64,000 bases of DNA from an uncultured Chloroflexia bacterium (GCA_963809215.1 CAWEIJ010000002.1:2019220-2083219); one strand, 5' to 3'. Shown: positions 17,765 to 59,125, counted from the stretch's first letter. The notes: generated from the letters alone by a model not told the origin. Made by a program: numbers and translations.

Positions 17765-17773
17765 CCAGGTCGC

Positions 17774-23760: not shown

Positions 23761-23780
23761 GGAGCTCCTGCCCGGGATCG

Positions 23781-27403: not shown

Positions 27404-27457
27404 GAGTGGGCACCAGCCGCTCCTGACAGTTAATCGGCCGCTCTTGACATTGCCGCC
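27404..27457. promoter_or_regulatory. right copy of the inverted repeat (TCCTGACAGTTAATCGGCCGCTCTTGACATTGCCGCC), ~97 bp upstream of the plus-strand OYE/FadH gene
   Basis: Mirror of the 26072-26125 copy. TTGACA -35-like hexamer oriented toward 27554. Confidence 0.6.
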
Positions 27458-27553
27458 CGTGCTCGCCGGGCACGAGACTGGCGCGAGACGCGCACCGGTC
27501 GGGGCGTCCCGCCTCCGCTGCGGATGCGACCCGCGCGAGACAGGGAGAGCTCC

Positions 27554-29728: not shown

Positions 29729-29764
29729 TCGTCGCGGTCCGCATCGGCACGCGAGCTCCCGGGC

Positions 29765-34001: not shown

Positions 34002-37000
34002 TCAGGGCCCGGGCGTGAAGCTGACGTTGTCGAAGGTGGCGGTCCCGAGCTTGGTGTTGACGTGCGAGCATTCCTCGAGCCCGAGGGTCGCCGCCGTCGG
34101 GATCGTGGCGAGGCTGGTCGAGGCGACCTGGGTCCAGGCGACGCCGTCAGACGACAGGAAGGCCGTGAACGACGAGCCGGAGCGGACCATCTTCATCCAG
34201 ACGTTGGGGAACGCGTAGGTCGTCGAGGCCTGGACCGAGCTGCTGAACTTCCACTGGACCTTGACGACGCCGCTGTTGTTGACCGCGATCAGGAAGTAGG
34301 GCGAGCCCGAGGACGTCGAGGCCTTCCAGATGAGCCCGGCCTTGCTGTTGGAGCTGCCGGTGTTCGTCTGGCTCGTCACCCGGGCGATGAGCGTGCCGTT
34401 GCCCGACACCGGCTGGTAGACGTAGTGGAACTGGTCGTACGTGCCGTAGATGTCGGCCCCTGAGCCGCTGACGGTGAAGACGCCGCCGGCGTAGGTCGCC
34501 GAGCCCGCGACCGCGGGAGACCCGATGTCGGCGTCGGTCCAGGGCGACGGCAGGCCGCCACCCGTGCTGGCCGTGACGGTCAGGCTGACGCTGGTCGTGT
34601 GGGTGGCCGAGGGCGCCGTGCCGGTGACCGTCAGCGGGTAGGTGCCGGGCGTGACGCCCGAGCCCACGGTGAGGGTCAGGGCCGAGCCTGCGCCGGCGGT
34701 GACGCTCGCCGGGCTGAAGCCGGCCGTCACCCCCGCCGGCAGGCCCGAGGCCGCCAGGCTGATGCTCTCGGCGCTGCCCGAGACGAGGGCGGTGCTGATG
34801 GTGCTGCCGCCGGCGGCACCCTGCACGACCGAGACGCTCGAGGGGCTGGCGCTCATCGAGAAGTCGTTGGTCACCGGAGCCGTGACGGTCAGGCTGACGC
34901 TGGTCGTGTGGGTGGCCGAGGGCGCCGTGCCGGTGACCGTCAGCGGGTAGGTCCCGGGCGTGACGCCCGAGCCCACGGTGAGGGTCAGGGCCGAGCCTGC
35001 GCCGGCGGTGACGCTCGCCGGGCTGAAGCCGGCCGTCACCCCCGCCGGCAGGCCCGAGGCCGCCAGGCTGATGCTCTCGGCGCTGCCCGAGACGAGGGCG
35101 GTGCTGATGGTGCTGCCGCCGGCGGCACCCTGCACGACCGAGACGCTCGAGGGGCTGGCGCTCATCGAGAAGTCGTTGGTCACCGGAGCCGTGACGGTCA
35201 GGCTGACGCTGGTCGTGTGGGTGGCCGAGGGCGCCGTGCCGGTGACCGTCAGCGGGTAGGTGCCGGGCGTGACGCCCGAGCCCACGGTGAGGGTCAGGGC
35301 CGAGCCTGCGCCGGCCGTGACGCTCGCCGGGCTGAAGCCGGCCGTCACCCCCGCCGGCAGGCCCGAGGCCGCCAGGCTGATGCTCTCGGCGCTGCCCGAG
35401 ACGAGGGCGGTGCTGATGGTGCTGCCGCCGGCGGCACCCTGCACGACCGAGACGCTCGAGGGGCTGGCGCTCATCGAGAAGTTGTTGGGCGGCGGGGAGC
35501 TGCTGGTGACCGTCAGCTTCACGGTCACGCTGTGCGTGGCCGAAGCCGACGTCCCCGTCACCGTGATGGAGTAGCTCGCGGCCGGGACCGCGGCCCCGAC
35601 CGAGAACGTCAGCGTCGAGCTCCCGCCGGTGGTCACCGACGCCGGGCTGAAGGCGGCAGTGACGCCCGCCGGCAGGCCGGTCGCGCTGAGCGTGATCGAT
35701 TCCGCGCTGCCCGAGATCAGGCCCGTCCCGATCGTCGTCTGGCCCGCCGCGCCGGCGGCAACGCTCAGCGAGGATGGCTTCGCCGTGACCGTGAAGTTGT
35801 TCGGTGGGGGCGGCGCGGCGGTCGGCAGGCTCACCGATCCGAAGGTCGCCGTGCCCAGGGCCGTGGTGCTATGGGAGGTCACCGCCATCCCGGCGAGGAC
35901 CGTCCCCGAGACCCCCAGGACCTGGCTCGAGCCGGCGACCGGCGTCCAGCTCACCCCGTCCGGCGAGGTGTACGCGGTGACGATGCTCCCCGACCGCAGC
36001 ACGGAGACGTAGGCCGGGACCGTTCCGGCGATGTTGGCGATGGTCACCACGTTGGCGTTCGTGGTGGGCCGCTGGAGCACGAACAGGCCCGCGCCAGGGG
36101 TGACCACGAGGGCATAGAACGGCGCGCCCGCATCCGTGCTCTGGCGGAGCATCACGCCGGCCCTCGCCCGGCTGTTCGTGTTCGTCTGGGTCAGGACGCG
36201 GGCATTCGCGCCGCCGTCCGCGGCGAGCGGCTGCCAGACGAGGTGGAGCTGGTCCGCCGTCCCGCCGATGTCGCGCCCGGAGCCGGAGATCGTCCAGGTG
36301 CCGTTGCTCAGCGAGTCGCTGCCCGCGACCGGCGGGGATCCGATGTCGACGCCGGTCCATCCGTTGGTCGACGTCCCCCAGGTCACGCTCGCCTGGTTCG
36401 ACCTGAAGCTGCCGACGGTCGTGACGCTCGCCACGACGATGTCGGTGCCCGAGACGCTGCTGCCGTAGGTGAAGGACGCGTGCCCGGTCGCGTCGGTCAC
36501 CGCGCTCCCGGTGACGCCCGCGTTCGGGCCGACGATGATCGTGAAGCCGACGGTGACGTTCGGGACGACGGCGCCGCCGCCATCCTGGAGGAGCGCCGTC
36601 TCGGTGACCTGGCCACCGACTGGCTGCGAGGCCGACGCCGGGCCGAGGGTGAGAGTCGCGGTGTCCGATCCCGCCGCGCCGATGGCACGCCACTGGATCG
36701 ACTCGTTCTGGCCGCAGTAGCCGCGGTCGATGCCGCCGGTGTCGAGGACATGGGTGCTGTCGACGAGCGTCGTGGGGACGCCGGCGATGGTGATGGTCAC
36801 CGTCGGCGCGACCGTGACCGGCGTGCAGATGTTGCCCGGGTAGCCGCTCGTGTCGAAGTTGTCGGAGCCCGGGTTGTTCGTGGGCGGGTTCTCGGTGAGG
36901 ATGACGCTCTTGCCCGCCGGGACCGTGAACGAGCCCCAGAGGCTGAACGCCTTGCCGCCCGGGACGGACGAGTGGATGTCGGCCGAGACGCTGCTGACCG

Positions 37001-37343
37001 TGACGTCGGCGGTTCCCGGGTTGTCGAGGCGGATCGCCCCGGCGTCATAGCAGGTGGTGAGGGTTCCGCATGCCGTCTGGCCCGGGACGGTGCCGCCCAG
37101 GAAGGTCGTGTTCGGAGCGCCGACCCAGGGAACCGGGAAGGCCGCCGGGTTCGGGTTGTTCGTCTCCTTGTCCTCGGCGTAGCCGACGGAGACGTTGAGG
37201 CCGCCTGCGCTCGAACCGGCGGCGATGGTCGCTCCGAGCAGGCCCTGGGGCGCGACGGCGACCGACGATCCGAACGCGGTCGCCGTCGCGAACACCAGGG
37301 CAAGGCCCGAGCGGACCCCCCGCTTCCAGCTCGATGCCTTCAT
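34002..37343 (-). CDS. giant secreted repeat protein (~1113 aa): signal peptide, Big_1-like Ig domain, lectin-like ~150-aa domain, 5 Ig-like 103-aa repeats, C-terminal lectin-like domain
   Basis: Start MKASSWKRGVRSGLALVFATATAFGSSVAVA with GGGGGG SD. Internal near-identical repeats. It is the lower part of ORF 34002..38720. Confidence 0.75.
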   Translation of the reverse strand: MKASSWKRGVRSGLALVFATATAFGSSVAVAPQGLLGATIAAGSSAGGLNVSVGYAEDKETNNPNPAAFPVPWVGAPNTTFLGGTVPGQTACGTLTTCYDAGAIRLDNPGTADVTVSSVSADIHSSVPGGKAFSLWGSFTVPAGKSVILTENPPTNNPGSDNFDTSGYPGNICTPVTVAPTVTITIAGVPTTLVDSTHVLDTGGIDRGYCGQNESIQWRAIGAAGSDTATLTLGPASASQPVGGQVTETALLQDGGGAVVPNVTVGFTIIVGPNAGVTGSAVTDATGHASFTYGSSVSGTDIVVASVTTVGSFRSNQASVTWGTSTNGWTGVDIGSPPVAGSDSLSNGTWTISGSGRDIGGTADQLHLVWQPLAADGGANARVLTQTNTNSRARAGVMLRQSTDAGAPFYALVVTPGAGLFVLQRPTTNANVVTIANIAGTVPAYVSVLRSGSIVTAYTSPDGVSWTPVAGSSQVLGVSGTVLAGMAVTSHSTTALGTATFGSVSLPTAAPPPPNNFTVTAKPSSLSVAAGAAGQTTIGTGLISGSAESITLSATGLPAGVTAAFSPASVTTGGSSTLTFSVGAAVPAASYSITVTGTSASATHSVTVKLTVTSSSPPPNNFSMSASPSSVSVVQGAAGGSTISTALVSGSAESISLAASGLPAGVTAGFSPASVTAGAGSALTLTVGSGVTPGTYPLTVTGTAPSATHTTSVSLTVTAPVTNDFSMSASPSSVSVVQGAAGGSTISTALVSGSAESISLAASGLPAGVTAGFSPASVTAGAGSALTLTVGSGVTPGTYPLTVTGTAPSATHTTSVSLTVTAPVTNDFSMSASPSSVSVVQGAAGGSTISTALVSGSAESISLAASGLPAGVTAGFSPASVTAGAGSALTLTVGSGVTPGTYPLTVTGTAPSATHTTSVSLTVTASTGGGLPSPWTDADIGSPAVAGSATYAGGVFTVSGSGADIYGTYDQFHYVYQPVSGNGTLIARVTSQTNTGSSNSKAGLIWKASTSSGSPYFLIAVNNSGVVKVQWKFSSSVQASTTYAFPNVWMKMVRSGSSFTAFLSSDGVAWTQVASTSLATIPTAATLGLEECSHVNTKLGTATFDNVSFTPGP
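34600..35530. repeat. 3 tandem, essentially identical 309-bp coding repeats (Ig-like domain units). The same unit recurs at ~38000-38620 in the neighbouring gene.
   Basis: Opposite-strand ORFs at 34642, 34960 and 35260 translate to identical 102-aa peptides; the period is 309 bp. Confidence 0.85.
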
Positions 37344-37399
37344 GACGTGAGCCCCCCGTGTGTTGCGGATGGTGTGGGACGCGTGGCCTGACGTCCCTG

Positions 37400-40300
37400 T
37401 CAGGGCTGGGTGATGGTGACGGTGTCGAAGGTGGCGCTGCCGAGGACGTTCGCGTTGTGGCTCGTGACGGCCATCCCGGCGAGGACGGTCGTGGGCATGG
37501 CGGTGATGGTCTGGGACGTGCCCGCGATGAACGTGAAGGTGACGCCGTCGGAGCTCGTGTAGGCGCTGAAGGTGTTGCCCGAGCGGGCGATCCGCAGGTA
37601 GAGCGGCGGGACGCCGGCGACCTTCGTGGCCTGGGAGGTGGTGCCGCCCTGGGTCGTCCGCCACTGGGTGGCGACGCCCTTGGTGGTGGTCATGAGGACG
37701 GCGTAGTAGGGCGCGGCCGGGTCGCTGCTCGCGCGCAACATGATGCCGGCCTTGGCGCTCGACGAGGTGTTGGTCTGCGAGGTGATCCGGACCGTCAGGG
37801 TCGAGTTGCCGGTCAGGGCTCTGGGAGACGAAGTTGAACTGGTCCGAGGCGTTGAAGATGTCGGCCCCTGAGCCGCTGACGGTGAACACGCCGCCGGCGT
37901 AGGTCGCCGAGCCCGCGACCGCGGGAGACCCGATGTCGGCGTCGGTCCAGGGCGACGGCAGGCCGCCACCCGTGCTGGCCGTGACGGTCAGGCTGACGCT
38001 GGTCGTGTGGGTGGCCGAGGTCGCCGTGCCGGTGACCGTCAGGGGGTAGGTCCCGGGCGTGACGCCCGAGCCCACGGTGAGGGTCAGGGCCGAGCCTGCG
38101 CCGGCCGTGACGCTCGCCGGGCTGAAGCCGGCCGTCACCCCCGCCGGCAGGCCCGAGGCCGCCAGGCTGATGCTCTCGGCGCTGCCCGAGACGAGGGCGG
38201 TGCTGATGGTGCTGCCGCCGGCGGCACCCTGGACGACCGAGACGCTCGAGGGGCTGGCGCTCATCGAGAAGTTGTTGGGCGGCGGAGCCGTGACGGTCAG
38301 GCTGACGCTGGTCGTGTGGGTGGCCGAGGGCGCCGTGCCGGTGACCGTCAGCGGGTAGGTGCCGGGCGTGACGCCCGAGCCCACGGTGAGGGTCAGGGCC
38401 GAGCCTGCGCCGGCGGTGACGCTCGCCGGGCTGAAGCCGGCCGTCACCCCCGCCGGCAGGCCCGAGGCCGCCAGGCTGATGCTCTCGGCGCTGCCCGAGA
38501 CGAGGGCGGTGCTGATGGTGCTGCCGCCGGCGGCACCCTGCACGACCGAGACGCTCGAGGGGCTGGCGCTCATCGAGAAGTCGTTGGGCGGCGGGGAGCT
38601 GCCCGGCACGCTGACGTTGTCGAAGGTCGCCGTGCCGAGCGCGCTCGTCTTGTGCGATGTCACGGCTAGGCCCGCGAGCATCGCCCCGGTCACCCCCGGG
38701 CTCGCGCTCGAGCCGGGCACGGCCGTCCAGGTGGCGCCGTCGCTCGAGGTGAACGCCGTGAACTTCGTGCCCGATCGCGTGATCCTGGAGGTAGATCGGG
38801 AGCGTGGCCGCGACCTTCGAGCTCTGCGAGGTCGTGACCCCCTGGCTGTTGCGCCACTGGACGACGACGCCGCTTCCGGGCGTGTAGAGCGCTGAATAGT
38901 AGGGAGAGCCCGGGTCGGTGGTCGCGCGCATCATCACGCCCGACTTGGCCGAGGAGCTCGTGTTCGTCTGGGTGACGAGCCGGGCGCTCACGTGCCGTCC
39001 GAGCTCGTCGAGACGGATGCGAAGTTGAACTGGTCGCTCGTGCCGTAGATGTCGGCGCCGGCGCCGATGACCGTGAAGGTGGGGCTCGTGTAGCCGCCCG
39101 ATCCGGTGATCGCGGGCGCGCCGATGTCCTGGTCGGTCCAGCCGGTGGGCAGGGGTCCGAGCGGCGGGGTCGTCGACGCCCACGACCTGGACGTGATCGA
39201 ACGCGACGGTGCTGTACTGGCCGATGTTGTGGGCCGTGTCGAAGAGCCCGATCGTGACCGGGCCCGTCATGGCCAGCGTGACGACGCCGATCTGCGTCCA
39301 GTTGACGCCGTCCGCGGAGATCGACGAGACGAACGTGTTGCCCGACCGCTGCAGCTGCACCCACTTGTTCGGCGAGGCGAAGCCGGTCGGGTAGGTCTTT
39401 GGTGTCACCCCGCCCGGGCCCGTGTACTGCATGCGCGCGCCGTTGCCCATCGCCGGCGTCACGGGCGGCAGCGGGCTGATGCAGCCGTTCGCGTCGCAGG
39501 CCACGCCGTTGATGTTCGGCGTGTTCGGGCTGACGTCGGGCGCCACGAGCGCGTCGACGAAGGCCGTGCCGGCCGCCGTGGACTGCGCGACCATGACGCC
39601 GGCCTTCGCCCAGGAGCTCGAGTTCGACTGGTAGCGGACCCGGGCGGTGATCGTCCCGTCGCCGGTCAGGGCCTGGTAGACGTAGTGGAACTGCTCGTTG
39701 GCGCCGTAGACATCCGAGCCCGAGCCGTCGACGTAGAACGTCCCGCTGCTCGCCGCGTAGTCGGCCGCGCCGACGGTGATCGGGGCGCCGACGTCGACGC
39801 TCTGCCACGACGAGGGCATCGTCGATGTCACCGGCTCGTAGTTGGCCGTGTAGGACCCCGGACCGGACCCGGCGGTGAACGTGTCGGTGAGCGTGCTGCC
39901 GTCCGCGAAGCCGGCGAACCGGTACCGGCTCCCGCCGATCGCCTGGACGAGCGGCATCCCGGCGATCACGTGCTGGACGCCGACGACGTCGGTCGTGCTG
40001 AAGGGGCCCGTGACCCACTGGCCGTCGATCGCGTAGCCCGCCCCGGCCACGTTCGCGCTCGCCGTCCAGGTGGTGGTGTTGGGATGGAGATCCTGGGTCA
40101 CGACGGTCTGGAGGCCGAGCGAGTCGGTGACGGTCAGCGTGATCCGATAGAAGCTCGTCGGCGTCTGGGACGGGTCCGTCGGGACCTGGAAGCTGCCGGA
40201 GGTGACGCCCGTCACGGGTCCGTAGAACGGGGATGCCACCTCGGCGGAGAAGGACGGCTGCGCAACGCCGTTGGCGTAGAAGTCGACCTTCCAGGAGTAG

Positions 40301-42285
40301 GCGCTCGGCGGCTCGGCGCCGTCGACCGCGTCCGTCGCGGTCCCGCTGAAGGCGACGGCCTGCCCGGCGTTGTAGGTCGCCGGCGCGCTGATCGCCACGA
40401 TGGGAGGCGAGGCCCCCACGGTGACCTGGGTGGTCGCCGTCCCCACCTGTGACCCGTTGCTCACCGTGAGCGTGGCGGTGTAGGTCCCGGCGCTCGCATA
40501 CGTGTGCGACGGGTTGGCAGCCGTCGAGAGCCCCGAGCCGTCACCGAAGTTCCAGGAGTAGCTGAGCGGCAGCCCGTAGGGGTCGGTCGAGCCGGCCGAC
40601 GAGAACTGGACCGGTAGCGGTGCCGGCCCCGCGTTCGGCGTCGCCGACGCCGTGGCAGTCGGGGCGAACGGCCCCGGAGCGGAGATCCGGTAGATCGAGC
40701 CGCTGAAGATGCTCGCGTAGTAGAGGTTCCCGTCGGGCCCCTCCTCCAGGTCCGCGATGGTCCCGACGGCGCTGTCGAAGACGGTGTCGGAGACGACGGT
40801 CCGGTACGTCGGGTCGAACGTCACCGCGTCGATCGACAGCTGGTTGTAGTCGCCGACGAAGACGACGTTGGCGTACTGCCGAGGGAACGTCGTCCCCGTG
40901 TAGGCCGCCACGGCCGAGGCCGCGCCGTCGACCGGGTAGTGGCCGTAGGCGTAGACCGGATTGATGCCGCCGCAGCTCCCGCAGTTGCCCTCGACGAAGT
41001 CCCAGCCGTAGTTGCCCCCGGGCTGGATCGTGTCGAGCTCCTCCCAGTAGCTCGAGCCCGTGTCCTCCGTCATCGGCTGGCCCGTCGGCAGGAACGACCA
41101 GCGGAACGGGTTGCGCAGCCCGTAGGCATAGATGTACGGGATTGCGTTGGGCACGTTCAGGAACGGGTTGTCGCTCGGGACCGACCCGTCGAGGTTGAAG
41201 CGCAGCATCTTGCCGTAGATGTTCGTGAGGGTCTGCGCGTTCGTGATCGACGGGACGTTGTCGCCGACGCTCCACCAGAGCTTGCCGTCGGGCCCGATCT
41301 TCACCGTCTGGCCGGGGTGGTGCCCGTTCTGGATCTGGTTGCCCTGGTAGTAGACCTTCTCGGTCGTGAGGTCGATCGCGTTGTTCACGACCGTGAACCG
41401 GGACAGCCTCGTGTACGGCTGCGTCCCGGAGCTGTTCGTGACGTTGACGACGTACGAGATGTACACGTAGCCGTTCGTCGCGAAGTTCGGGTCGAGCGCG
41501 AGGCCCAGCAGGCCGCACTCCGTGTTGTAGAAGACGTTGGGGAGCGTCACGAGGGGGGTCGGGAGGACGGCGCCGTTGCGGTAGATCAGGATGACCCCGG
41601 TCTGCTCGCCGACATAGATGTCGCCGTTGGGGGCGAAGGCGAGGAGGATGGGCTTCGTCAGCGATCCGGCGAGCTTCGTCTGCGTGAAGCCGGGCGGAAG
41701 GACCTGGTTGATCGGGGTCGTGACCGTCGCCGACGCGCTGAACGGCGTCGACGACTCGGTCCCGGTGACCGTGGCCGTGTTGGAGAGCGATCCGCCCGCC
41801 GCGGCCGTGACCTGGCCGGTGATCGTGACCGACCAGGACCCCCCGGCGGAGAGCGTCGCTGCGCTGCACGTGACGGTCGGGCTGGCGAAGCTGCAGCTGC
41901 CGGTGCTCGCGGTCATCCACGGCGACGACGGGAAGCTGCCGATGCCGAGGCCGACGAGCGTGTCGGTCAGGCTCAGGCCCGACGCTGCCGCGCCGCCCGT
42001 GTTCGCCACGGTGATCGTGTAGGCGAGCGCCTGGCCGCTGCTGACCGGGTTGGGGGAGGACGTGACGGCGATGGAGACTGCCGGGCCGACGGCCAGGGCC
42101 GGGCTGGTCACGGCGGCGGTCGCCCCGACCAGGGCAAGGATCGCGACCGCGCGCAGCGCGATCCTGCGGACCGGGCCGCGGTGGCCCCGTGCCCGCCCGG
42201 GCGCGCGCCGCGCGTCCGCCCGGCCGCCGTCGTCCCGCCGCCGAAGCAGCGTCATGAGACTCCTGCGGGATCGCCTGGCTTCCAT
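37400..42285 (-). pseudogene. giant secreted protein (~1630 aa if repaired): signal peptide, DUF11 conserved-repeat domain, PQQ-dependent soluble glucose/sorbosone dehydrogenase (GSDH) beta-propeller, 2 PKD domains, lectin-like ~150-aa domains and Ig-like repeats. Reading frame broken by at least 4 single-nt indels (~39165, ~38990, ~38785, ~37820).
   Basis: Protein-like segments are distributed over three frames (ORFs 37813..42423, 34002..38720 upper part, 37400..37969). Each junction is restored by a one-nt shift. RBS GGAGG upstream of the ATG at 42285. Confidence 0.7.
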
Positions 42286-42301
42286 CCTGAACCTCCAACC
42301 A

Positions 42302-42328
42302 GATGAATGGGATGAATTGGATGAGTGC
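42302..42328. repeat. 3 x 9-bp tandem repeat GATGAATGG / GATGAATTG / GATGAGTGC in the 85-bp intergenic spacer immediately upstream of the RBS of the 37400-42285 gene
   Basis: Direct reading; AT-richer than surrounding sequence. Confidence 0.5.
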
Positions 42329-42370
42329 GGCGGGTGGATCAAGGTGCGCGCGCCTCCGGGTTCGGGCGGC

Positions 42371-45300
42371 TCAGGGGCCGGGGACGAGGCCAACGGTGTC
42401 GAACGTGGCGGCGCAGAGCGCACCGGTGTTATGGGACGTCACGGCCATCCCGGCGAGGACGGCGGTGGGCAGGGCGATCGTCTGGGAGCTGCCCGGGACG
42501 AGCGTCCAGTTGACGCCGTCGGTGCTCGTGTAGGCAGTGAACGTGTTGACCAGGCGCGCGATGCGCAGGTAGAGCGGCGGGACGCCGGCGACCTTCGACG
42601 TCTGCGAGGTGGATCCCCCCTGGGCCGTGCGCCACTGGACCACGACGCCCTTGGTCGTGGTCATGAGGATCGCGTAATACGGCGAGCCCGAGGCACTCGA
42701 GGCTCGGAACATCAGGCCTGCCTTTGCGCTCGGATTGGTGTTCGTCTGGCTGGCCACGCGGGCGCTGAGGGTCCCGTTGCCGGTGAGGGCCTGGCTGACG
42801 AAGTTGAACTGGTCGGCGGTGGCGTAGATGTCGGCCCCGGCCCCGTTGACCGTGAAGACGCCGGCGCTGTACGTGGCCGAGCCGGCGAGGGCAGGAGCCC
42901 CGATGTCGGCGTCGGTCCAGGGCACCGGCAGCGGCGGCGGGGGCGCGGTGACCGTCAGGCTGACCGTGGTCGCGTGGGTCGCCGAGGGGGCGGTCCCGGT
43001 GACGGTCAGGGGATACGTCCCGGTGGGGACGCTGGCGGCGACGGCGAGGCCGAGCGTCGCGCTGCCGCCGGCGCTGACCGAGGTCGGGGTCAGGGTGGCG
43101 GTCACGCCCGCCGGCAGGCCGCTGACCGCGAGGGCGACCGTCTCGGCGCTGCCCGAGATGAGGGCGGTGGTGATGCTCGTCCCGCCCGAGGCGCCCTGGG
43201 CGATCGAGAGGCTCGACGGGCCCGCGGCGATCGAGAAGTCGTTGGGGGTGACCGTGGACAGCCCGACGTTGTCGAAGGTGGCGGCCCCGAGGGCGGTCGC
43301 GGTGTGACACGTGACGGCCAGCCCGGCGAGGACGGCGGCGGGCATGGCGATGGTCAGGCTCGAGCCGGGCACCGCCGTCCAGCTGACCCCGTCGGGGCTG
43401 GTGTAGGCAGTGAAGGTGCTGGCCGAGCGGACGATGCGCAGGTAGACCGGGACGGTGCCCGCGATCTTGACCTGGCCGGTGGTGCCGCCCTGGGCCGTGC
43501 GCCACTGGACGGCGACGCCGTTGGCCGGGGTGGCGAAGACCGCGTAGTTGGGCGCCCCGGGATCGCTCGTGGCGCGCAGCATGAGCCCGGCCTTGGCCCA
43601 GGCGTTCGAGTTGGCCTGGCTGGCCACGCGGGCGCTGAGGGTCCCGTTGCCGGTGAGGGCCTGGCTGACGAAGTTGAACTGGTCGGCGGTGGCGTAGATG
43701 TCGGCCCCGGCCCCGTTGACCGTGAAGACGCCGGCGCTGTACGTGGCCGAGCCGGCGAGGGCAGGAGCCCCGATGTCGGCGTCGGTCCAGGGCACCGGCA
43801 GCGGCGGCGGCGGCGCGGTGACCGTCAGGCTGACCGTGGTCGCGTGGGTCGCCGAGGGGGCGGTCCCGGTGACGGTCAGGGGATACGTCCCGGTGGGGAC
43901 GCTGGCGGCGACGGCGAGGCCGAGCGTCGCGCTGCCGCCGGCGCTGACCGAGGTCGGGGTCAGGGTGGCGGTCACGCCCGCCGGCAGGCCGCTGACCGCG
44001 AGGGCGACCGTCTCGGCGCTGCCCGAGATGAGGGCGGTGGTGATGCTCGTCCCGCCCGAGGCGCCCTGGGCGATCGAGAGGCTCGCCGGGCCCGCGGCGA
44101 TCGAGAAGTCGTTGGGCGTGACCGTCGAGAGGGCGACGCTGTCGAAGGTGGCGGCCCCGAGGGCGGTCGCGTTGTGGGACGTGACGGCCAGCCCGGCGAG
44201 GATGGCGGCGGGCATGCTGATGGTCAGGCTCGAGCCGGGCACCGCGGTCCAGCTGACGTTGTCGGGGCTGGTGTAGGCAGTGAAGGTGCTGGCCGAGCGG
44301 ACGATGCGCAGGTAGACCGGGACGGTGCCCGCGATCTTGACCTGGCCGGTGGTGCCGCCCTGGGCCGTGCGCCACTGGACGGCGACGCCGTTGGCCGGGG
44401 TGGCGAAGACCGCGTAGTTGGGCGCCCCGGGATCGCTCGTGGCGCGCAGCATGAGCCCGGCCTTGGCCCAGGCGTTCGAGTTGGCCTGGCTGGCCACGCG
44501 GGCCGTGAGGGTCCCGTTGCCGGTGAGGGCCTGGCTGACGAAGTTGAACTGGTCGGCGGTGGCGTAGATGTCGGCCCCGGCCCCGTTGACGCTGAAGACG
44601 CCGGCGCTGTACGTGGCCGAGCCGGCGAGGGCAGGAGCCCCGATGTCGGCGTCGGTCCAGGGCACCGGCAGCGGCGGCGGCGGCGCGGTGACCGTCAGGC
44701 TGACCGTGGTCGCGTGGGTCGCCGAGGGGGCGGTCCCGGTGACGGTCAGGGGATACGTCCCGGTGGGGACGCTGGCGGCGACGGCGAGGCCGAGCGTCGC
44801 GCTGCCGCCGGCGCTGACCGAGGTCGGGGTCAGGGTGGCGGTCACGCCCGCCGGCAAGCCGCTGACCGCGAGGGCGACCGTCTGGGCGCTGCCCGAGATG
44901 AGGGTCGTGGTGATGCTCGTCCCGCCCGAGGCGCCCTGGGCGATCGAGAGGCTCGCCGGGCCCGCGGCGATCGAGAAGTTGTTGGGCGTGACCGTCGAGA
45001 GGGCGACGCTGTCGAAGGTGGCGGCCCCGAGGGCGGTCGCGTTGTGGGAGGTGACGGCCAGCCCGGCGAGGATGGCGGCGGGCATGCTGATGGCCTGGCT
45101 CGAGCCGGGCACCGCGGTCCAGCTGACGTTGTCGGGGCTCGTGTAGGCAGTGAAGGTGCTGGCCGAGCGGACGATGCGCAGGTAGACCGGGACGGTGCCC
45201 ACGATCTTGACCTGGCCGGTGGTGCCGCCCTGGGCCGTGCGCCACTGGACGGCGACGCCGTTGGCCGGGGTGGCGAAGACCGCGTAGTTGGGCGCCCCGG

Positions 45301-48300
45301 GATCGCTCGTGGCGCGCAGCATGAGCCCGGCCTTGGCCCAGGCGTTCGAGTTGGCCTGGCTGGCCACGCGGGCCGTGAAGGTCCCGTTGCCGGTGAGGGC
45401 CTGGCTGACGAAGTTGAACTGGTCGGCGGTGGCGTAGATGTCGGCCCCGGCCCCGTTGACGCTGAAGACGCCGGCGCTGTACGTGGCCGAGCCGGCGAGG
45501 GCAGGAGCCCCGATGTCGGCGTCGGTCCAGGGCCACGGGACGGGCGAGATCGACACGCTGTCGAACGTCGCCGAGCCGAGGGTCCCCCACGTGTGCGAGG
45601 TCACGGCGAGGCCGGCGAGGACGGGCCCGCTCAGGCCGACGCTCGACGGCGGAGCCCGGCACCGGCGTCCACGAGATCCCGTCCGGCGAGGTGTACGCCG
45701 TCGCTGTCCCGGCCGACATCGAGACGGCGAGATGGACCGGCGGTCCGCCCGCGGCCACGAGCTGCGAGCTGGCGCCGGCGAGCGTCGTCCTCCACTGGAT
45801 CGCGATCCCGTTGCCGGGCGTGACGAACACCGCGTAGTAGGGCGAGCCGGGGTCGATGCTCGACCTGAGCATCACGCCGGCCTTCGCCCACGCTGACGTG
45901 TTGGTCTGCGAGATCGCCCGCGCGACGATCGACCCGTCCGTCGGGAGCGTCTGCCAGGCGAAGTGGAACGCGTCGGCCGTCGACCAGATGTCCCCGCCGC
46001 CGCCCTGGACCGTCCAGGTCCCGGCGGTGAGCGATTGCGCGCCGGTGACGCCCGTCGAGCCGATGTCGGCGCAGGTCCAGCCCGTCGGGCATGCCCCCGG
46101 CGGCGGCCCGGCGTTGCCGAGCGTGACGGTGTCGAAGGTCACCGTGCTGAGCTGGCTCGTGTTGTGGGACGTGACGGCGAGGCCCGCGAGGATCGTCCCG
46201 GTCAGGCCGAGGCTCACGCTCGCGTTGGGAATGGGGGTCCAGTTGAGCCCGTCGCTCGACGTGTACGCCGTGAACGTGCCGTTCGACTGCGCCACCTCGA
46301 GCCACGCGGGGGCGACGCCCGGCGTCGTCACCTGCGAGGACGCCCCACCCTGCGTCGTCCGCCACTGGACCGCGATCCCGTTCGAGGGCGTCACGAACGC
46401 GGCGAAGTAGGGCGAGCCCGGGTCGGACGTCGCCCGCATCATCAGGCCCGCCTTCGCCCAGGAGCTCGTGTTCGTCTGGGTGTCGAGACGGGCGCTGAGC
46501 GCACCGTTGCCGGTCAGCGGCTCGCTCAGGAAGCGGAAGCTGTCGGACGTTCCCCAGATGTCGCCGCCGCCGCCCTGGACGGTCCAGCTGCTGCCAGTGA
46601 CGTACTGCGCTCCGCCCGGGACCGGGAAGCCGATGTCCCCGCAGGTCCAGCCGGTCGGGCAGAGGCTTGGCGGGGGCGCCGCGGACGCCGTGGCGGACAC
46701 GGTGTCCATCGTGTCGGTGGCGAGGGTCGACGCGGAGCCGGAGCTGACCGCCAGGCCGCCGACGACGCCGGTCGTCGGGCCGAACGTCACGCTCGAGCCG
46801 ATGATCGGCGACCACGCGACCCCGTCGGGAGAGGTGAACGCGGTGTACGTCGTCTGCGAGCGGGTGATCTCCAGGTACTGCGGCGGCGTGCCCGCGATGC
46901 TCACCAGCGGCGTCACCCGCATACCTGCCGCGCTTCGGTAGAGGACCTGGACCCCGTTTGCCGGCGTCACGAAGACGCCGTAGGAGAGCGCGCCCGGAGT
47001 CGTCGCGTCGGCCCGGAACTCGAGGCCGGCCTGCGCGCCCGCCGTGTTCTGCTGGGCAGTGACGTGGGCGACGAGCGTCGCGTCACCGGAGAAGGCCTGG
47101 TAGACGTAGTGCAGCTGGTCGGCGTAGCCAGCGTTCCCGATCCCCGCTCCGGAAAGCGACCAGACCCCGCTGCTGAGCGACTGGTTGCCGACCGCTCGCC
47201 GGGTTGCCGATGTCGGTGCACGTCCAGCCGCCGGGACATGGCGATGACGACGGCGGCGGGTTCGGCGGCGCGCCGGGCGGGCCGATCGCGACCGTGTCCA
47301 CGGTCGAGGCCGTGGCCGTTCCGTTCGTGCCGGACGCCGCGGCCAGGCCGACCATCGCCGTGGTCGGCACGACGACGCTCGCCGTGCTGCCGGCGACGAG
47401 CGTGAACGTGGAACCGTCGGGCGACGTCGCCGCCCCGAGCGTGTCCCCGACCCGCTGGATCTCCAGGTAGAACGGCAGCGCGGGCGCGGTGACCTGCACG
47501 CTCTTGACGGCCCCCAGGAAGGCCGTCCGGTACTTCGCGGAGACGGTGCCGGCGCCGTTGTACGTGACGGCGTAGAACGGCGAGCCCGGATCGTTCGCCT
47601 GCCGGACCATGAGCCCGGTCTGCGTTGCGCTCCCCGGTGTGGCCCGTCACCCGGGCCGTGATCTGCGCGTCGCCGGAGACGGCCTGGCTCATGAGACGGA
47701 GCTGGTCGGTCCCGCCGGCGAGACCGAGGCCGGCGCCGCCCGCGGCGATCGACCACGACCCGGCGCGGACGGTCTCGCTGCCCGCGGGCGCGGGGCTGCC
47801 GACGTCCTGGCACGTCCAGCCGGTCGGGCAGCTGGCGTCGACCGGCGGCGTCGTCGGCGTGACGGGGGCGAACGCGAAGACGGTCCCGTCACCGGAGCCC
47901 ATGTAGACCGTGCCGTTCGAGACGCTCGGCGGCGAGTACGTCACTGCGCCCGTCTGGTAGCTCGAGAGGACGTTCCCGGTGGCGGCGTCGAGCACCTCGA
48001 GGTACTTCCCGGCCCCGGCGAAGACCATCCCGTTGTCGTACGCGAGGGCGGGAATGACGGGACTGGCCAGCCCGCGGGCCCAGACGACGTTGCCCGTGCC
48101 GGGGTCGACGGCCCGGACGGCTCCCGGATAGCCGACCCCGTTGATCGTCGTGTTCCCGCCCGCGGCGTAGAGGAGGCCCTGGGCGAACGCCATCGAGGAG
48201 ACGCTGCCGTCCCCGCACGTCGGGCAGATGCCGCTGACGGCCACCTGGTCGTACCAGACCGGCCCCGCGGCGATGTTCGAGCGAAGGAACGCGTAAAGAA

Positions 48301-49381
48301 AGCCGTTCTTGTTGATCCCGGCGACCAGCGCACGCCCGGTCGAGTCGGTGAACAGGATCGGCGAATCCCCCCAGTCGGAATCCGCGTTCATCGTGCTCTG
48401 CGGGATCTGCCACGAGCTCAGGATGGAGAGCGAGGTGGCGTCCAGGGCGACCATCGCCTCCGAGTACGCCTGGGTGCTCTGGTTGAGCGTGCCCGTGGTG
48501 ACGTAGACGATGTTCGTCGCCGGATCGATCGACGGGGTCGTCCAGACGCCGCCGCCGACCTGGCCGCCTGGCACGAGGCTGGCCGTCGCCATCACCGCGT
48601 GGGTCGTCAGGTCGACGCGCAGGAGCTGGCCCTGGACGAGCGGGCAGTCCCCCAGGCTTGCAACGCCGATATACACGGAGTTGCCGTAGATGAGCGGGCT
48701 GGCCCAGTTGTAGTAGCCGTTCGCCGGGTTGCCGATCGGGATCGACCAGAGGACCTGGCCGGTCGCGGCGCTGAGCGCGTACCAGTTGCCGTCGCCCCCG
48801 CCGACGTAGACCGTGCCGTTGGAGACGTTCGCGGTGGACGACACGCCGAGCGCCGGCGGGGAGCACTGGGGCGCGGTCGTCGTGCCGATGAACGTCTTCC
48901 AGATAAGCGCGCCCGTGGACGCGTTGAGCGCGTACTCGTAGCCATCCCACGAGCCCACGTAGGCCACGCCGCCCACGATCGTGGGCGAGGCGGCGATGAC
49001 GCCGCCCGTCTTGTACGTCCAGAGCGGCCGCAGGTTCGGCGCGCCGGCGGCCGAGAGGATCGTCTCGGAGCTCGCGGCCGTGAGCTGCGGGTTCTGCAGG
49101 TACATCGGCCAGTCGACCGCGGGCGACGCCGCGAGCGCCGTCGCCGGAGCTCCGAGCTGCGCGCCCAGGGCGGCGTTGAGCACCAGGACGAGCGCCCCGG
49201 CGACCTTCCAGGCCGCCCTCCGTCGTCCCGTTCCCGCACGCAGACGCGCGCGGTGCGCTCGGATGCCCGTGCCGACTGGCACGCCCACGTTTCGCCGCCC
49301 TCGATCGATTGCATCGGGCGCTGCCGATGGAGCTCCGGATCCGACGGCTGCGCCGCTCGCCGGATCGAAGGGGATAGGCAT
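42371..49381 (-). pseudogene. giant secreted protein (~2330 aa if repaired): signal peptide, PQQ-repeat beta-propeller, multiple CPTGWTCxDIG-prefixed lectin-like ~150-aa domains, 3.3 x 290-aa (Ig-like plus lectin-like) near-identical repeats. Frame broken by at least 3 single-nt indels (~47635, ~47205, ~45648).
   Basis: Protein-like segments lie in ORFs 46967..49549, 47083..47610, 42429..47813 (upper part) and 42371..45604. Junctions are restored by one-nt shifts. Confidence 0.7.
42800..45500. repeat. ~3.1 tandem copies of a near-identical 870-bp coding repeat
   Basis: Opposite-strand ORFs at 42828, 43698, 44568 and 45438 are near-identical and spaced exactly 870 bp. Confidence 0.85.
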
Positions 49382-49996
49382 CGTGGCGCTGGCGCGCCGA
49401 AGCCCCCCAATGCCGCGTGGTCCTGATCGGACCGAGAATGATTGCCTGGCAACGAGGTGGACCATTCGAATGAATGGGACGCTGGCCCGCCATCGCCGCC
49501 GTCGCGGAGTATCGCGCCGACGCAATCGCGCGTCAAGACCGCGTGTCAAGGGTCCAATTGACCCTTTTCAGATGACCCGTGGACTCGTCCCTTCGAGGTC
49601 GCGATGACCGGTCGGTGAGGGCTCCGCGGCGCGCGCGGCCACCGGGAATCCGCCGCACGGGCCGTCCGTACTGGGCCATCCTGCGCCCCGGACGGGCACA
49701 AGACGGCCCCGGACGCCACCGGAGCGCACCGTCGCCCTGACGTGTGGCGGGCCGCCCTAGGAACATCGTGCGGGTTGGCGCCGGCCCAGCGGCTGCCCAA
49801 AGTCTGGTCTTGAAAGCGTCCCGCCACGGGTTGCTCTCGGGTCGCACCAGGTCCTCTGCGTCGAGGTTCTCTCACCTGCCGGGCGGCCATCGAACGGGAG
49901 ACGACGTCAATGTTCTCGAACGTAACCGGTCGGACGGTCGCGCCCGCCGTCCCGGGTCCCGCCGGGCGACGGCCGGCCTTCCAGCGGCCCCGCGGC

Positions 49997-51770
49997 ATGG
50001 CGACGGCGGTTGTCGTGGTAGCCGCCCTGGTTTCCTGGAGCGCCGGCGCGGTGCCGGGACTCGCTGCGACCAACACGAAGCAGGCCGCGACGCTCGCCCA
50101 GGCCGGGGCCTGCCCGACGGGCTGGACGTGCGCCGACATCGGGGCACCGAAGGTCGCGGGCGGCACGAGCCTGGCCGGCGGCGCCTTCACGCTCACCGCG
50201 TCGGGCGCGGACATCTTCGCGTCGTCGGACCAGTTCCAGCTCGCATGGCAGTCGCTCCCGGGTGACGGGTCGATCATCGCGCGGATCACCTCCCAGGCGA
50301 ACACGTCGGTGAGCGCCAAGGCGGGGATCATGCTGCGAGCGTCGACGGATCCCGGATCCCCGTACTACGCCGTCCTCATGACCACCACCAAGGGCGTCGC
50401 GACCCAGTGGCGCAAGACGGCAGGCGCGACCACGTCGCAGGCAACCAAGGTTCCCGGCGTTCCCGCGCGCTGGCTTCGGATCACGCGAAGCGGCAACACC
50501 TTCACCGCGTACACGGGCGCAGACGGCGTGGCGTGGACCCCCGTGGCAGGCTCGGCACAGACGTTCGCCCTCCCGACCGTCGCGCTCGCCGGCCTGGCCG
50601 TCACCAGCCACAACGGCGGCGTTCTCGGCACGGCCACCTTCGACAACGTGACATCGTCCGCCACGCCGACACCGCCGCCGACGCCAGCGCCGACATCCAC
50701 ACCGACGCCGGCCCCAACCGCGACGCCGACGCCGACGCCGACGCCGACCGCCACGCCCAAGCCGACGCCGACGCCCACTCCCGCCCCCACGACGTCGCCG
50801 ACGCCCGCACCGATCGGTTCGTCGCAGTTCGTCGGGCGGAGCGGCACGACGCTGACGCTCGGCGGCGCGCCGTACGTCTTCACTGGCTTCAACATCTACA
50901 ACGCGAACAGTCGCTCGAACTGCGGCGCGACGGCCGGCACGGGCAGCTACCTCGACACGGCCCTCGGCGACATCGGGTCGGCCCACCCCGTCATCCGCGC
51001 GTGGTTCTTCCAGAGCCTGGCGACCAGCAACGGGGTGCGCGACTGGTCCGCCTTCGATCACACCCTCGCGATCGCTGCGGCGCACGGCGTCAAGGTCATC
51101 GCCACCCTTGGCAACCAGTGGACGTCGTGCGAGACCGGCGGCTACAAGTGGGACAGCTGGTACACGGGCGGGTACAGGACCGTCCGTCGATCCCGGCAAC
51201 GTCACGACCTATCGCCAGTGGGTCAGCGACGTGGTCGCCCGCTACAAGGACAACCCGACGATCGCGTTCTGGCAGCTCATCAACGAGTCGGAGATCAAGG
51301 CCGACAACTCCTCGAGCTGTGGCCCGGCGGCGGATCTCTACAACTTCGCGGCTGACGTCTCAGCCCTGGTCCACTCGATCGATGCCAACCACCTCGTCTC
51401 GCTCGGTGAGATGGGCGGCGGCCAGTGCGGCATGCAGGGCTCCGACTACCAGAAGATCCATTCGATCCCGACGATCGACCTCTGCGAGTTCCACGACTAC
51501 GGCCATCCCACCACTGCGCTGCCGACGAACTTCGCGAATGATCTCGCCGCCTGCAGGGCGGACGGCAAGCCGCTCTACATCGGCGAGGCCGGGATCCAGG
51601 TCACCGACGTCGGTAGCACCAGCCTCCGGGCAACGGACCTCTGGAACAAGTGGTCCGCCCAGATGGCGGCGGGCGCCGCGGGGTTCCTGGTCTGGTCCTG
51701 GAATAACAGCCCCGACGGCACGACCTACCAGGTCGGCCCGGGCGATCCGCTCATGAGCATGGCCTGGTAA
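49997..51770 (+). pseudogene. secreted glycoside hydrolase family 5 (clan GH-A, mannanase/cellulase-like) with N-terminal lectin-like ~150-aa domain and Pro/Thr linker; single +1 frameshift near 51176-51182
   Basis: Signal peptide MATAVVVVAALVSWSAGA, then CPTGWTCADIG and the D-domain, then (TP)n linker. Catalytic motifs WQLINESE (acid/base NE) and LYIGEAG (nucleophile). The two halves are in ORFs 49910..51355 and 51108..51770. Confidence 0.75.
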
Positions 51771-58410: not shown

Positions 58411-58459
58411 CGCGGAGCCTCCCCCGCCGAGGGGGGTCACGTGACGGGCCCGGGCTTGG

Positions 58460-59125
58460 CTAGCTGGTGGTGATCGACGAGTCGGTGGTGCGCCGGCGGA
58501 GCAGGAACCAGCCTGTTCCGAGGCCACCCGTGAGGATCAGCAGCGCTGCCGCCGGAACCTCGGGCACCTCGCCGCCAGGTGCGGGCGGTGGGACGCCCGG
58601 CGAGTTGTGGCAGTCCCCGCTCCGGGAGTCCACGTCACGATCGAGGATCGAGTCGAAGTGGCTGAAGATGTGCTGCGCGTTGCCCGAGGTCACGCCCGAG
58701 ATGCCAACGGAATAGTCGACGAACCCGCTGCTGGGGTAGGTGAAGCTGGCTGGGTTCCCGGCGGCTGCGTTGCTCTGGCCGCTGCAGTCCAGGCCACTGG
58801 CCACGGTGTAGGACGTCGAAGCCAGGACGACGCCACCTGAGGTGACCGTGAGCGTGTACGTCCCGCCGAACGATTGGGGCGCAGGGTCGGCCGGCTTCTG
58901 GACGCAGACGTAGTCCAGGAGGCTGGCCGGGCCGGAGCCGAACAGGCGACCGGAGACGCCGCTGCCGCCGTACACCAGCGAGCCGCAGCCGCCACCGGTG
59001 CACTCGCCCGTGGTGGTGTTGATGCTCTTGCGGAACGTGTGGGCGGACACGGCCGTCGTCGATAGGATGGAAAAGAGAAAGATCAGGACAACCGCAGCCA
59101 ACGGCCGCAGCCTTCTGCTCGACAT
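58460..59125 (-). CDS. small Cys-rich secreted protein with C-terminal PEP-CTERM-type sorting signal (VPEVP, then AAALLILTGGLGTGWFLL, then RRR); putative exosortase substrate
   Basis: N-terminal signal peptide MSSRRLRPLAAVVLIFLFSILSTTAVSA. 6 Cys. C-terminal tripartite motif read directly. Confidence 0.7.
   Translation of the reverse strand: MSSRRLRPLAAVVLIFLFSILSTTAVSAHTFRKSINTTTGECTGGGCGSLVYGGSGVSGRLFGSGPASLLDYVCVQKPADPAPQSFGGTYTLTVTSGGVVLASTSYTVASGLDCSGQSNAAAGNPASFTYPSSGFVDYSVGISGVTSGNAQHIFSHFDSILDRDVDSRSGDCHNSPGVPPPAPGGEVPEVPAAALLILTGGLGTGWFLLRRRTTDSSITTS

Follow-up and report, generated by a model that had tools for sequence, protein, structure and literature searches.

DUF1349-family ConA-like modules shared by three large secreted repeat proteins and a GH5 enzyme at a Chloroflexia locus

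Three repeat-protein genes and a divergent GH5 gene

The window, a stretch of 64,000 nucleotides from an uncultured Chloroflexia bacterium analysed at its full length, carries three co-directional genes on the minus strand, termed A (42371..49381), B (37400..42285) and C (34002..37343). As originally noted, these are separated by spacers of 85 and 56 bp, in agreement with gene ends at 42371, 37400 and 34002. GGAGG or G-rich sites lie upstream of the ATG starts at 42285 and 37343; for A, a GTG at 49288 is a likelier start than the ATG at 49381. The GH5 gene (49910..51770) is encoded divergently on the plus strand, again as anticipated, and starts at either ATG 49910, as in the orthologue of the relative L002, or ATG 49997. 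No Rfam families or tRNAs were found in the window, including the long divergent intergenic region between A and GH5. The proteins encoded by A, B, C and GH5 all have a signal-like N-terminus, and the repeat proteins differ in their head domains as had been claimed: a PQQ_2 propeller in A, DUF11 and GSDH in B, and a Big_1-like domain in C.

Gene A encodes a protein of 2335 aa once three surplus bases, at 47639, 47198 and 45644, are removed, with the head followed by eight DUF1349 modules and three Ig-like spacers. The head is a PQQ_2 / BamB-type beta-propeller (47867..49120, minus strand; PQQ_2 104.8 bits), which among PDB sequences comes nearest to designed 'Cake' propellers and BamB. An assignment as eight-bladed quinoprotein alcohol/glucose dehydrogenase was rejected: the TIGR03075 model gives 94.9 bits where 480 are required, and the match spans only positions 18-187 of its 530. 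Judged by sequence, the A head is a generic PQQ-like-repeat propeller and not a demonstrable quinoprotein dehydrogenase.

Gene B yields 1627 aa after four single-base corrections, and combines DUF11 (41755..42078, minus strand; 47.1 bits), GSDH, PKD, a beta region, three DUF1349 modules and two Ig-like spacers. Its PQQ-dependent glucose/sorbosone dehydrogenase-type six-bladed propeller (40714..41661, minus strand) matches GSDH (PF07995) at 188.5 bits, and B residues ~200-530 align with the sGDH/aldose sugar dehydrogenases 1C9U, 2G8S and 2ISM (E 5e-27 to 4e-24). The alignment with 1C9U matches both the catalytic His (KDHQSG / NGHHPGQ) and the R-N PQQ-contact motif. By profile and catalytic His, B carries a GSDH-type domain and is a predicted PQQ enzyme. 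Of the sugar-dehydrogenase propellers proposed earlier in the plural, that of B thus holds as GSDH/sGDH-type, whereas that of A fails the quinoprotein models. Unlike the sGDH/aldose sugar dehydrogenases, the B domain sits inside a 1627-aa secreted multidomain protein, flanked by DUF11 and by PKD plus DUF1349 arrays. Where two PKD domains had been expected, Pfam detects a single stretch (40417..40665, minus strand; PKD_4 81.2 bits; residues 541-623), and B residues ~620-830 have no Pfam match.

Gene C, an ORF without interruption, encodes 1113 aa. The signal-like N-terminus is followed by a conserved beta-rich head, an Ig domain assigned as Big_1-like (PF02369; 36414-36608) by profile match or invasin/intimin Ig fold, module C1 (35817-36371), four Ig-like spacers (34560-35804) and module C2 (34008-34553), all on the minus strand. 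The GH5 protein, 619 aa once one extra base at ~51185 is removed, consists of a DUF1349 module (50111-50665), a Pro/Thr linker (50659-50813) and the catalytic domain (all plus strand), the latter matching PF00150 at 36.8-37.2 bits (cut-off 23.5). The best PDB matches are all GH5 endo-beta-1,4-mannanases (3ZIZ at 9e-18); INESE aligns with ANEP (NE motif), and the E of IGEAG with EEYG (nucleophile Glu). The catalytic domain is predicted to be mannanase-like, closest to endo-beta-1,4-mannanases.

A repeated module with a predicted ConA-like fold

An HMM built from five copies finds 14 copies of the repeat module between 34008 and 50665, with eight in A, three in B, two in C and one at the N-terminus of the divergently encoded GH5; none was found by the same HMM elsewhere in the 64-kb window. 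Copies score 120 to 345 bits, with the exception of B1, which is split by an insert (81 + 37 bits). Pairwise identity ranges from 25 to 97%, with A8, B3 and the GH5 module forming a common subtype (58-71% identity). The consensus agrees with the signature originally described, and the HMM match bears out the claim that the N-terminal domain of the GH5 enzyme is the same module. The module extends over ~183 aa including the linker (~165 aa folded), in place of the ~150 aa first estimated.

In A, modules A1 (47275..47830) and A2 (46683..47237) are divergent: A1 lacks G-x-G-x-D-I-W and WAKAG and is split by a frame change at ~47639, while the first ~14 positions of A2 lie in another frame (indel at ~47198). 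Module A3 (46110..46661; 320.6 bits) is of the CPTGWTC type, and A4 (45539..46091) is split by a frame change at ~45644. The region 42377..45541 holds A5 (44990-45541), A6 (44120-44671), A7 (43250-43801) and A8 (42377-42931), alternating with Ig-like spacers at 44675-44992, 43805-44122 and 42935-43252. The repeat unit of this stretch is 870 bp, with A5-A7 mutually 92-97% identical. In B, module B1 (39175-39819) carries a ~30-aa insert, B2 (38595-39152) is spread over three frames and B3 (37403-37961) over two, with spacers at 38277-38594 and 37968-38282; all A and B repeats are on the minus strand. The proposed alternation of module and spacer hence applies to the C-terminal half of A only, A1-A5 being directly tandem and the B and C spacers occurring in tandem runs.

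Nine beta-rich Ig-like spacers of ~105 aa (103-106 aa) were found, three in A, two in B and four in C, with 309-bp units 98-100% identical within and between B and C. For the spacer, neither Pfam nor PDB sequences give a significant match; AF2 models it with low confidence (pLDDT 44-68), and its homologues are mainly short fragments, a few with DUF5980 or NEW3.

The module had been described as unclassified. However, pieces of A match Pfam DUF1349 (PF07081) at 35.6 and 51.7 bits, above the gathering cut-off of 32.4 bits, and database relatives already bear that name. Pieces of B, C and GH5 score below the cut-off (25.3, 20.5 and 26.5 bits) or give no match; their modules are unambiguous homologues of those in A, at 165-250 bits with our own HMM (B1 excepted, 81 + 37). 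Pfam GH43_C2 is also matched. A PDB sequence search with a single module gave no match at E <= 10 except a spurious nigerythrin, and being uninformative, led us to take the fold from prediction. The AF2 model has a pLDDT of ~97 across the module, and Foldseek places 3MEP and 3O12 on top, with GH43 C-terminal domains, CBM66 and legume lectins ranking next. The predicted fold is the two-sheet jelly-roll sandwich of ConA-like lectins and glucanases (legume lectin, GH16, LamG) and agrees with the solved DUF1349 members 3MEP and 3O12. The ConA-like beta-sandwich proposed earlier is thus upheld by a high-confidence prediction with both lectins and a true CBM, CBM66, among its neighbours, and the copies are new members of a known, widespread and uncharacterised family.

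The two solved members, 3MEP (ECA2234, Pectobacterium) and 3O12 (yeast YJL217W, 'regulation of enolase protein 1'), each consist of one domain of ~180 aa, whereas the module here is secreted, present in up to eight copies and fused to propellers, GSDH and GH5; its identity to 3MEP is only ~13%. The structural neighbours CBM66 (Bacillus subtilis SacC levanase, 4B1M/4AZZ) and GH43_C2 share 14-18% identity with the module, which is not a sequence-level member of either; for CBM66 the likeness is structural only (14-16% identity). The ligand of CBM66 is the terminus of fructans, and GH43_C2 lies against a catalytic site that it helps to complete; neither occurs in long tandem arrays as the module does.

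The wider family comprises 16,380 clusters at 50% identity, with relatives named 'DUF1349 domain-containing protein' or 'regulation of enolase protein 1 (concanavalin A-like superfamily)', and 70 of 74 sampled relatives match PF07081. Thousands of large proteins contain the module, in 1-12 copies each, with fn3, Big_7, TIG or PKD as spacers. Fusion partners include GH16, GH5, GH71, RGI lyase, Agd3 deacetylase and SASA esterase, as well as the non-glycan partners purple acid phosphatase, PhoD, phosphoesterase and PHB depolymerase. The architecture was thought unusual, yet metagenomes commonly encode giant proteins with multiple DUF1349 modules; a fusion of GSDH with DUF1349 is less frequent, though present as a conserved orthologue in several lineages. 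Searches of the literature for DUF1349 / PF07081 turned up incidental mentions, with no functional study and no demonstrated ligand.

The existence of many giant multi-repeat proteins fused to varied enzymes suggests a non-catalytic targeting or binding module, and its position varies from N-terminal in GH5 to C-terminal arrays in A, B and C. The module could instead be catalytic itself, a ConA-fold glycosidase, lyase or transglycosylase, making these proteins poly-enzymes. The polar residues D34, D40, K70, R76, Q99, R101 and H166 are indeed strongly conserved (invariant or near-invariant), and the fold is common to the true enzymes GH16 and PL7. However, A1 and A2 have lost several of these residues, the closest structures (3MEP, 3O12, the GH43 C-terminal accessory domain, CBM66) are non-catalytic or of unknown function, and up to 8-12 tandem copies per protein, along with fusion to genuine catalytic domains, are what CBMs typically show. 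We consider a catalytic module quite improbable.

Frame disruptions in A, B and GH5

A, B and GH5 had been taken as plain genes, overlooking eight frame disruptions. Only C of the four genes is a continuous ORF, with A, B and GH5 needing three, four and one single-base corrections, located by GC3 frame tracking and split HMM matches. An extra base is present at each of the A sites (~47639, ~47198 and ~45644), and B requires deletions at ~39176, ~38788 and ~37820 and an addition at ~38990. The extra base at ~51185 in GH5 shifts the frame upstream of the NE motif, interrupting the coding sequence. Corrected in this way, all three genes give clean proteins.

Each break is a 1-nt indel against ~85%-identical relatives, which have their own, different indels (~25 in 4.9 kb for L001). 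The 2332-aa ORF of L002 was rejected as an intact A reference, being out of frame over long stretches and open only through high GC; this orthologue served only to locate indels. The L002 GH5 orthologue is a single 627-aa ORF, collinear with the corrected window protein. Programmed ribosomal frameshifting was also rejected because the eight sites share no heptamer or motif; the shifts are mixed +1 and -1.

Since a CoxL-like gene (~8980) and a GT2 gene elsewhere in the window likewise show damage, the likeliest cause of the breaks is not biological but lies in consensus errors of a long-read assembly. Alternatively, A, B, GH5 and the TAG-bearing GT2 could be recently inactivated pseudogenes of a decaying locus. 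The eight indels fall within 17.8 kb (~0.45 per kb), denser than in the rest of the window, most sites have no homopolymer context, and one lies inside the unique, non-repetitive GH5 catalytic sequence. Against this, GC3 stays at 0.9-0.99 and domains continue perfectly past the breaks, with no accumulated stops or substitutions, while the three +1 events in A restore the original frame. Furthermore, damage to the unrelated CoxL-like and GT2 genes, the different indels carried by the same genes in long-read-style contigs of relatives, and the intact orthologues in the related loci L004 and L083 all argue against decay, which we regard as unlikely.

Genomic context and proposed role

Downstream of GH5, the minus strand encodes an apiosidase-like (PF13204) glycoside-hydrolase-type protein (51939..53306; 28.1 bits, cut-off 26.5), a PMT_2 (GT-C type) membrane glycosyltransferase (53335..55131), a membrane GT2 with the QRSRW motif of the processive type (55118..56749), which contains an in-frame TAG at 55727-55729, and an exosortase (EpsH) family membrane protein (56785..58527; 77.8 bits). 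Genes for a sugar ABC transporter and for sugar catabolism are located upstream. Both PMT_2 and GT2 adjoin A/B orthologues in L004 and L083/L084; the exosortase was not seen in the sequence fetched at related loci.

Locus L004 contains PMT_2, GT2, B-like (1216 aa), A-like (1482 aa) and GH5 genes, all intact. An Actinocrinis MAG (L083/L084) encodes a GT2+PMT_2 fusion, a GT2, and A-like (six modules), B-like (two) and C-like (one) proteins, and L086 has two A-like, a GH5 and two C-like genes. Relatives belong to Actinocrinis, Ktedonobacterales, other Chloroflexota MAGs and a contig labelled Sinomonas; in a scan of GTDB representatives the nearest genomes are at 66-68% aa identity. The A/B/C trio lies beside GT2 and GT-C again in the Actinocrinis MAG and the Sinomonas-labelled contig, a recurrence that suggests a conserved extracellular-glycan locus.

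The GH5-DUF1349 fusion was seen in the window lineage only, the GH5s of L004 and L086 being without the module. This restricted distribution counts against the reading proposed next.

We propose that the DUF1349 module, at 1-8 copies per protein, is most likely a non-catalytic targeting or binding module that would direct the secreted proteins to a single shared polymer, with a glycan the most plausible candidate. Proteins so targeted would be B (PQQ-type sugar dehydrogenase), A (propeller), C (conserved head) and the mannanase-like GH5. Carbohydrate binding is suggested by domain architecture only, and since the family's fusion partners include enzymes that do not act on glycans, the ligand could be something other than a carbohydrate. 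Recurrence of A/B/C beside GT2 and GT-C, sometimes with GH5, favours an extracellular or cell-envelope glycan produced by the organism itself. GT2/GT-C would synthesise this glycan, the GSDH oxidise or modify it and GH5 trim it, while multivalent DUF1349 arrays may keep the proteins in place, with the ~105-aa beta-rich units serving as spacers. On balance we consider it probable, by a modest measure, that the arrays are targeting modules on a self-made glycan and the breaks assembly errors.

It is also possible, if on the unlikely side, that the modules are CBMs for an external plant or fungal polysaccharide such as beta-mannan, within a biomass-degrading and -oxidising set that would pair the mannanase with an AA12-like PQQ dehydrogenase. 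The relationship of GH5 to endo-beta-1,4-mannanases, its typical CBM-linker-catalytic layout with Pro/Thr linker, the mainly polysaccharide-degrading partners within the family, the adjacent apiosidase-like protein and the upstream sugar uptake and catabolic genes are all consistent with an external substrate. However, A/B/C are repeatedly linked to the biosynthetic GT2 and GT-C in three lineages, the GH5-module fusion is not conserved, and arrays of up to eight modules plus spacers on non-hydrolytic heads resemble retention or scaffold proteins more than CBM-enzymes.

A self-made glycan would find an analogy in the Streptomyces cslA-glxA-cslZ(-lpmP) apical glycan locus (PMC11022532, PMC9040799), where by the same logic a processive GT2 synthase is encoded beside a secreted or extracellular oxidoreductase and a glycoside hydrolase, the set producing and remodelling a surface glycan. 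The parts are non-homologous: a copper radical oxidase and GH6 in Streptomyces, in contrast to a PQQ-type GSDH propeller and GH5 here. GT-C and exosortase are present here, and the DUF1349 arrays have no counterpart in the Streptomyces locus. More tentatively, the arrays might represent a new CBM family for a self-made surface or matrix glycan, and GT2/GT-C/A/B/C (+GH5) an undescribed synthesis-oxidation-trimming system of soil Actinomycetota and Chloroflexota, analogous to CslA-GlxA-CslZ but with a secreted PQQ-dependent dehydrogenase; we think this doubtful.

For the present, the observation is correct and concerns a domain family already known, encoded in an assembly that contains errors. 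DUF1349 has >16,000 clusters and two orphan crystal structures, and the locus together with the conserved cluster offers a concrete context for assigning its function, with the same module on a mannanase-like GH5, a PQQ sugar dehydrogenase and two further secreted proteins beside glycan synthases. If the module does bind glycan, it would constitute a new CBM family and would account for the giant secreted proteins, thousands of them, that are labelled 'hypothetical' in metagenomes from soil.

Module repeats across four neighbouring genes

An HMM built from five module copies was used to search the whole window. It detected 14 modules of ~183 aa, longer than the ~150 aa of the original prediction, all located between 34008 and 50665 and with no further copies elsewhere in the window. 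The module was originally described as unclassified, but it matches the Pfam family DUF1349 (PF07081) at 35.6 and 51.7 bits (cut-off 32.4), with GH43_C2 as a secondary match. Database relatives carry names such as 'DUF1349 domain-containing protein' or 'regulation of enolase protein 1 (concanavalin A-like superfamily)'. One module together with a spacer was modelled with AlphaFold2 from 65 aligned sequences; the module is predicted to be a 13-strand all-beta sandwich, with pLDDT ~97. Foldseek ranks 3MEP (ECA2234) and 3O12 (yeast YJL217W) highest for this model, followed by GH43 C-terminal domains, CBM66 and legume lectins, which is in keeping with the concanavalin A-like fold that had been guessed from sequence.

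Gene A (42371-49381, minus strand) encodes a propeller followed by modules A1-A5 in direct tandem and three spacer-module units of 870 bp each. Gene B (37400-42285, minus strand) encodes DUF11, a glucose/sorbosone dehydrogenase-type (GSDH) propeller, PKD, a ~200-aa region without detected domain, B1 (with a ~30-aa insert), B2, two spacers and B3. The gene C product (34002-37343, minus strand) comprises a conserved ~200-aa head, a Big_1-like Ig domain, C1, four spacers and C2, while the GH5 protein contains one module, a Pro/Thr linker and the catalytic domain. Modules share between 25% and 97% identity; A8, B3 and the GH5 module group together as a subtype (58-71% identity), and A1 and A2 lack the G-x-G-x-D-I-W and WAKAG motifs.

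The spacers, labelled Ig-like, are 103-106 aa in length and are located at 34560-35804, 37968-38594, 42935-43252, 43805-44122 and 44675-44992. No Pfam match or PDB sequence match was found for this ~105-aa unit, and its AlphaFold2 model is beta with low confidence. Most homologues are short fragments; some come from Acidobacteria, and a DUF5980 tag is found on a few, although these links are weak. Hence, it is the spacer, not the lectin-like module, that is truly without a family. Identity among the 309-bp spacer units is 98-100%, both within and between genes B and C. A stretch of ~770 nt, composed of these units and the start of the next module, is 95-100% identical between C (34413-35487) and B (37821-38594). 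This reflects either recent gene conversion or duplication between the neighbouring genes, or mis-assembly of the repeats.

Reading frames and frame breaks

The ~72% G+C content of the window crowds raw ORF lists with spurious long frames, and the true reading frame was followed via third-position GC (GC3). Between 49.2 and 34.0 kb the minus-strand coding signal forms three blocks, which end at 42371, 37400 and 34002, with the intergenic gaps of 85 and 56 bp recovered as predicted. GGAGG/G-rich sites precede ATG 42285 (gene B) and ATG 37343 (gene C), while for gene A the ribosome-binding site is better at GTG 49288 than at ATG 49381. The GH5 coding signal is on the plus strand, from 49910 or 49997 to 51770. 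The divergent A/GH5 intergenic region (49382-49909) is long, at ~530-620 bp depending on start codons, and contains no Rfam match. By inspection, all four proteins have a signal-peptide-like N-terminus (a basic then a hydrophobic stretch), and none has an obvious C-terminal anchor.

Of the three minus-strand blocks, only gene C is a single open frame. The repeats of the original prediction are real, but its description left out the frame breaks. The high-GC3 frame switches at ~47640, ~47180 and ~45640 in gene A, at ~39170, ~39000, ~38760 and ~37800 in gene B, and at ~51190 in the GH5 gene. All of these switches fall mid-domain within recognisable domains, and the protein sequence continues unbroken across them. 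The breaks were mapped by alignment to two contigs of one ENA metagenome assembly (L001 and L002), which carry a syntenic locus at ~85% nucleotide identity. All proved to be single-base indels: extra bases at 47639, 47198 and 45644 in gene A (minus strand), at ~39176, ~38788 and ~37820 in gene B (minus strand, with one base missing at ~38990), and at ~51185 in the GH5 gene (plus strand). Once these are corrected, A, B and GH5 read without stops as proteins of 2335, 1627 and 619 aa, respectively. The indels in L001 and L002 differ from those of the window, L001 having ~25 in the 4.9-kb B region; the 2332-aa gene A ORF of L002 is seemingly intact, yet is out of frame internally. Intact orthologues are carried by L004, a draft-genome contig with the label Sinomonas, and by an Actinocrinis MAG.

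We consider the breaks in A, B and GH5 to be probably assembly errors. Pseudogenisation, which would make the breaks real, is in line with their higher density at this locus than in the rest of the window but appears unlikely, and it bears on gene integrity rather than on module function. The repeat locus is not alone in showing frame errors, as a CoxL/xanthine-dehydrogenase-type molybdenum hydroxylase large subunit gene (minus strand) is divided between frames at ~8980-8993. Its Hammerhead and MoCoBD_1 domains lie at 8981-10522 and MoCoBD_2 at 8185-8978 (from profile position 24), with a second GC3 frame change near 8185. No slippery motif is shared among the eight break sites. The hexamer CGTCGA is present at three of the eight (45644, 39176 and 51185), whereas its occurrences, each extended by 4 nt on both sides, make up only 3.8% of the window; this post hoc observation could reflect context- or methylation-specific basecalling error.

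Head domains and the DUF1349 family

The original mention of sugar-dehydrogenase propellers, in the plural, was an overstatement, as only B carries a domain of this type. Residues ~200-530 of B can be aligned with soluble PQQ glucose dehydrogenase, whose catalytic His and R-N motif are conserved. The A propeller is of the PQQ-like-repeat/BamB type and fails the quinoprotein enzyme models. The C head with Big_1 shares 60-73% identity with a common ~505-aa family (head, Big_1 and one DUF1349) of hundreds of proteins from Ktedonobacterales, other Chloroflexota and Actinocrinis MAGs. The model of this region (pLDDT 86) resembles invasin/intimin Ig domains, and neither an enzyme fold match (model search) nor a Pfam family was found for the head. 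This ~200-aa head (36650-37259) is rich in invariant Cys, His, Asp and Trp residues and contains the motifs VGYAEDKETN, CGTL..CYDAG and LVDSTHVLDTGGID.

A full HMMER scan of the module against 1.84 billion representatives matched 16,380 clusters at E <= 1e-3, of which 2,814 remain at E <= 1e-30, and the best matches are proteins of 500-3,900 aa with 3-12 module copies. The architecture had therefore been rated as more unusual than it is. Among 74 sampled relatives, glycan-enzyme partners include GH16, GH5, GH71, GH39-C, RGI lyase, pectate-lyase-like, Agd3 deacetylase, SASA esterase and galactose-oxidase-like domains. Purple acid/PhoD phosphatases and PHB depolymerase represent non-glycan enzymes, in addition to PQQ_2 propellers and fn3, Big_7, TIG and PKD spacers. 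Such promiscuous, multi-copy and position-independent occurrence points to an accessory binding module, and makes it very unlikely that DUF1349 is itself catalytic. The binding role originally proposed is thus likely, as judged from the domain-architecture behaviour of the family; a literature search found no DUF1349 ligand.

A conserved cluster with glycosyltransferases

Beyond the GH5 gene are encoded an apiosidase-like protein, a PMT_2 (GT-C) glycosyltransferase, a membrane GT2 with QRSRW motif and an exosortase-family protein. The exosortase (EpsH) family gene (56785-58527, minus strand) adjoins the GT2/GT-C genes; none was found in the fetched flanks of the Actinocrinis or L004 clusters. 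The GT2 gene (55118-56749, minus strand) has an in-frame TAG at 55727-55729 within the conserved motif GGWDP-x-NVTEDADLG, where relatives lead us to expect an aromatic residue and TAC is one base away. The stop codon stems either from an erroneous substitution or from a genuine nonsense mutation of the processive-type synthase gene.

The association of A/B/C with GT2/GT-C genes is conserved in other loci. The L004 cluster is intact, with PMT_2, GT2, B-like, A-like and GH5 genes, and its B head is 68% identical (aa) to that of the window. L004 is a 16-kb contig (NZ_JAUSTE010000025.1, G+C 62.7%) labelled Sinomonas atrocyanea DS1015. The Actinocrinis MAG encodes a GT2+PMT_2 fusion, GT2, and A-like (6 modules), B-like (2) and C-like (1) proteins, while a 54%-GC contig (L086) contains two A-like, one GH5 and two C-like genes. 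At 80 GSDH-PKD loci from reference genomes, DUF1349 modules occur only in the close relatives L003 and L004.

On the opposite side of the locus lies a sugar-uptake and catabolism cluster (16337-33910). It encodes a sugar-type ABC transporter (binding protein, ATPase and two permeases), a DeoC-type aldolase, a xylose-isomerase-like TIM barrel, three GFO/IDH/MocA oxidoreductases, an AraC regulator, an OYE-type flavoenzyme, a ROK kinase and an amidohydrolase, the latter two syntenic in L002. The GH5 catalytic domain is nearest to GH5 endo-beta-1,4-mannanases and retains both catalytic Glu. Binding of the modules to exogenous mannan-type biomass seems rather unlikely. We lean slightly towards a model in which the DUF1349 arrays act as multivalent binding modules that would direct the dehydrogenase, the propeller protein, the C protein and GH5 to one shared polymer, most likely a glycan produced by the adjoining GT2/GT-C machinery. 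The logic would be analogous to that of Streptomyces CslA-GlxA-CslZ (PMC11022532, PMC9040799), although the components are not homologous to those of this locus. The A, B, C and GH5 modules add new, expanded members to a domain family that is known yet uncharacterised, and the conserved cluster provides a moderately interesting lead.
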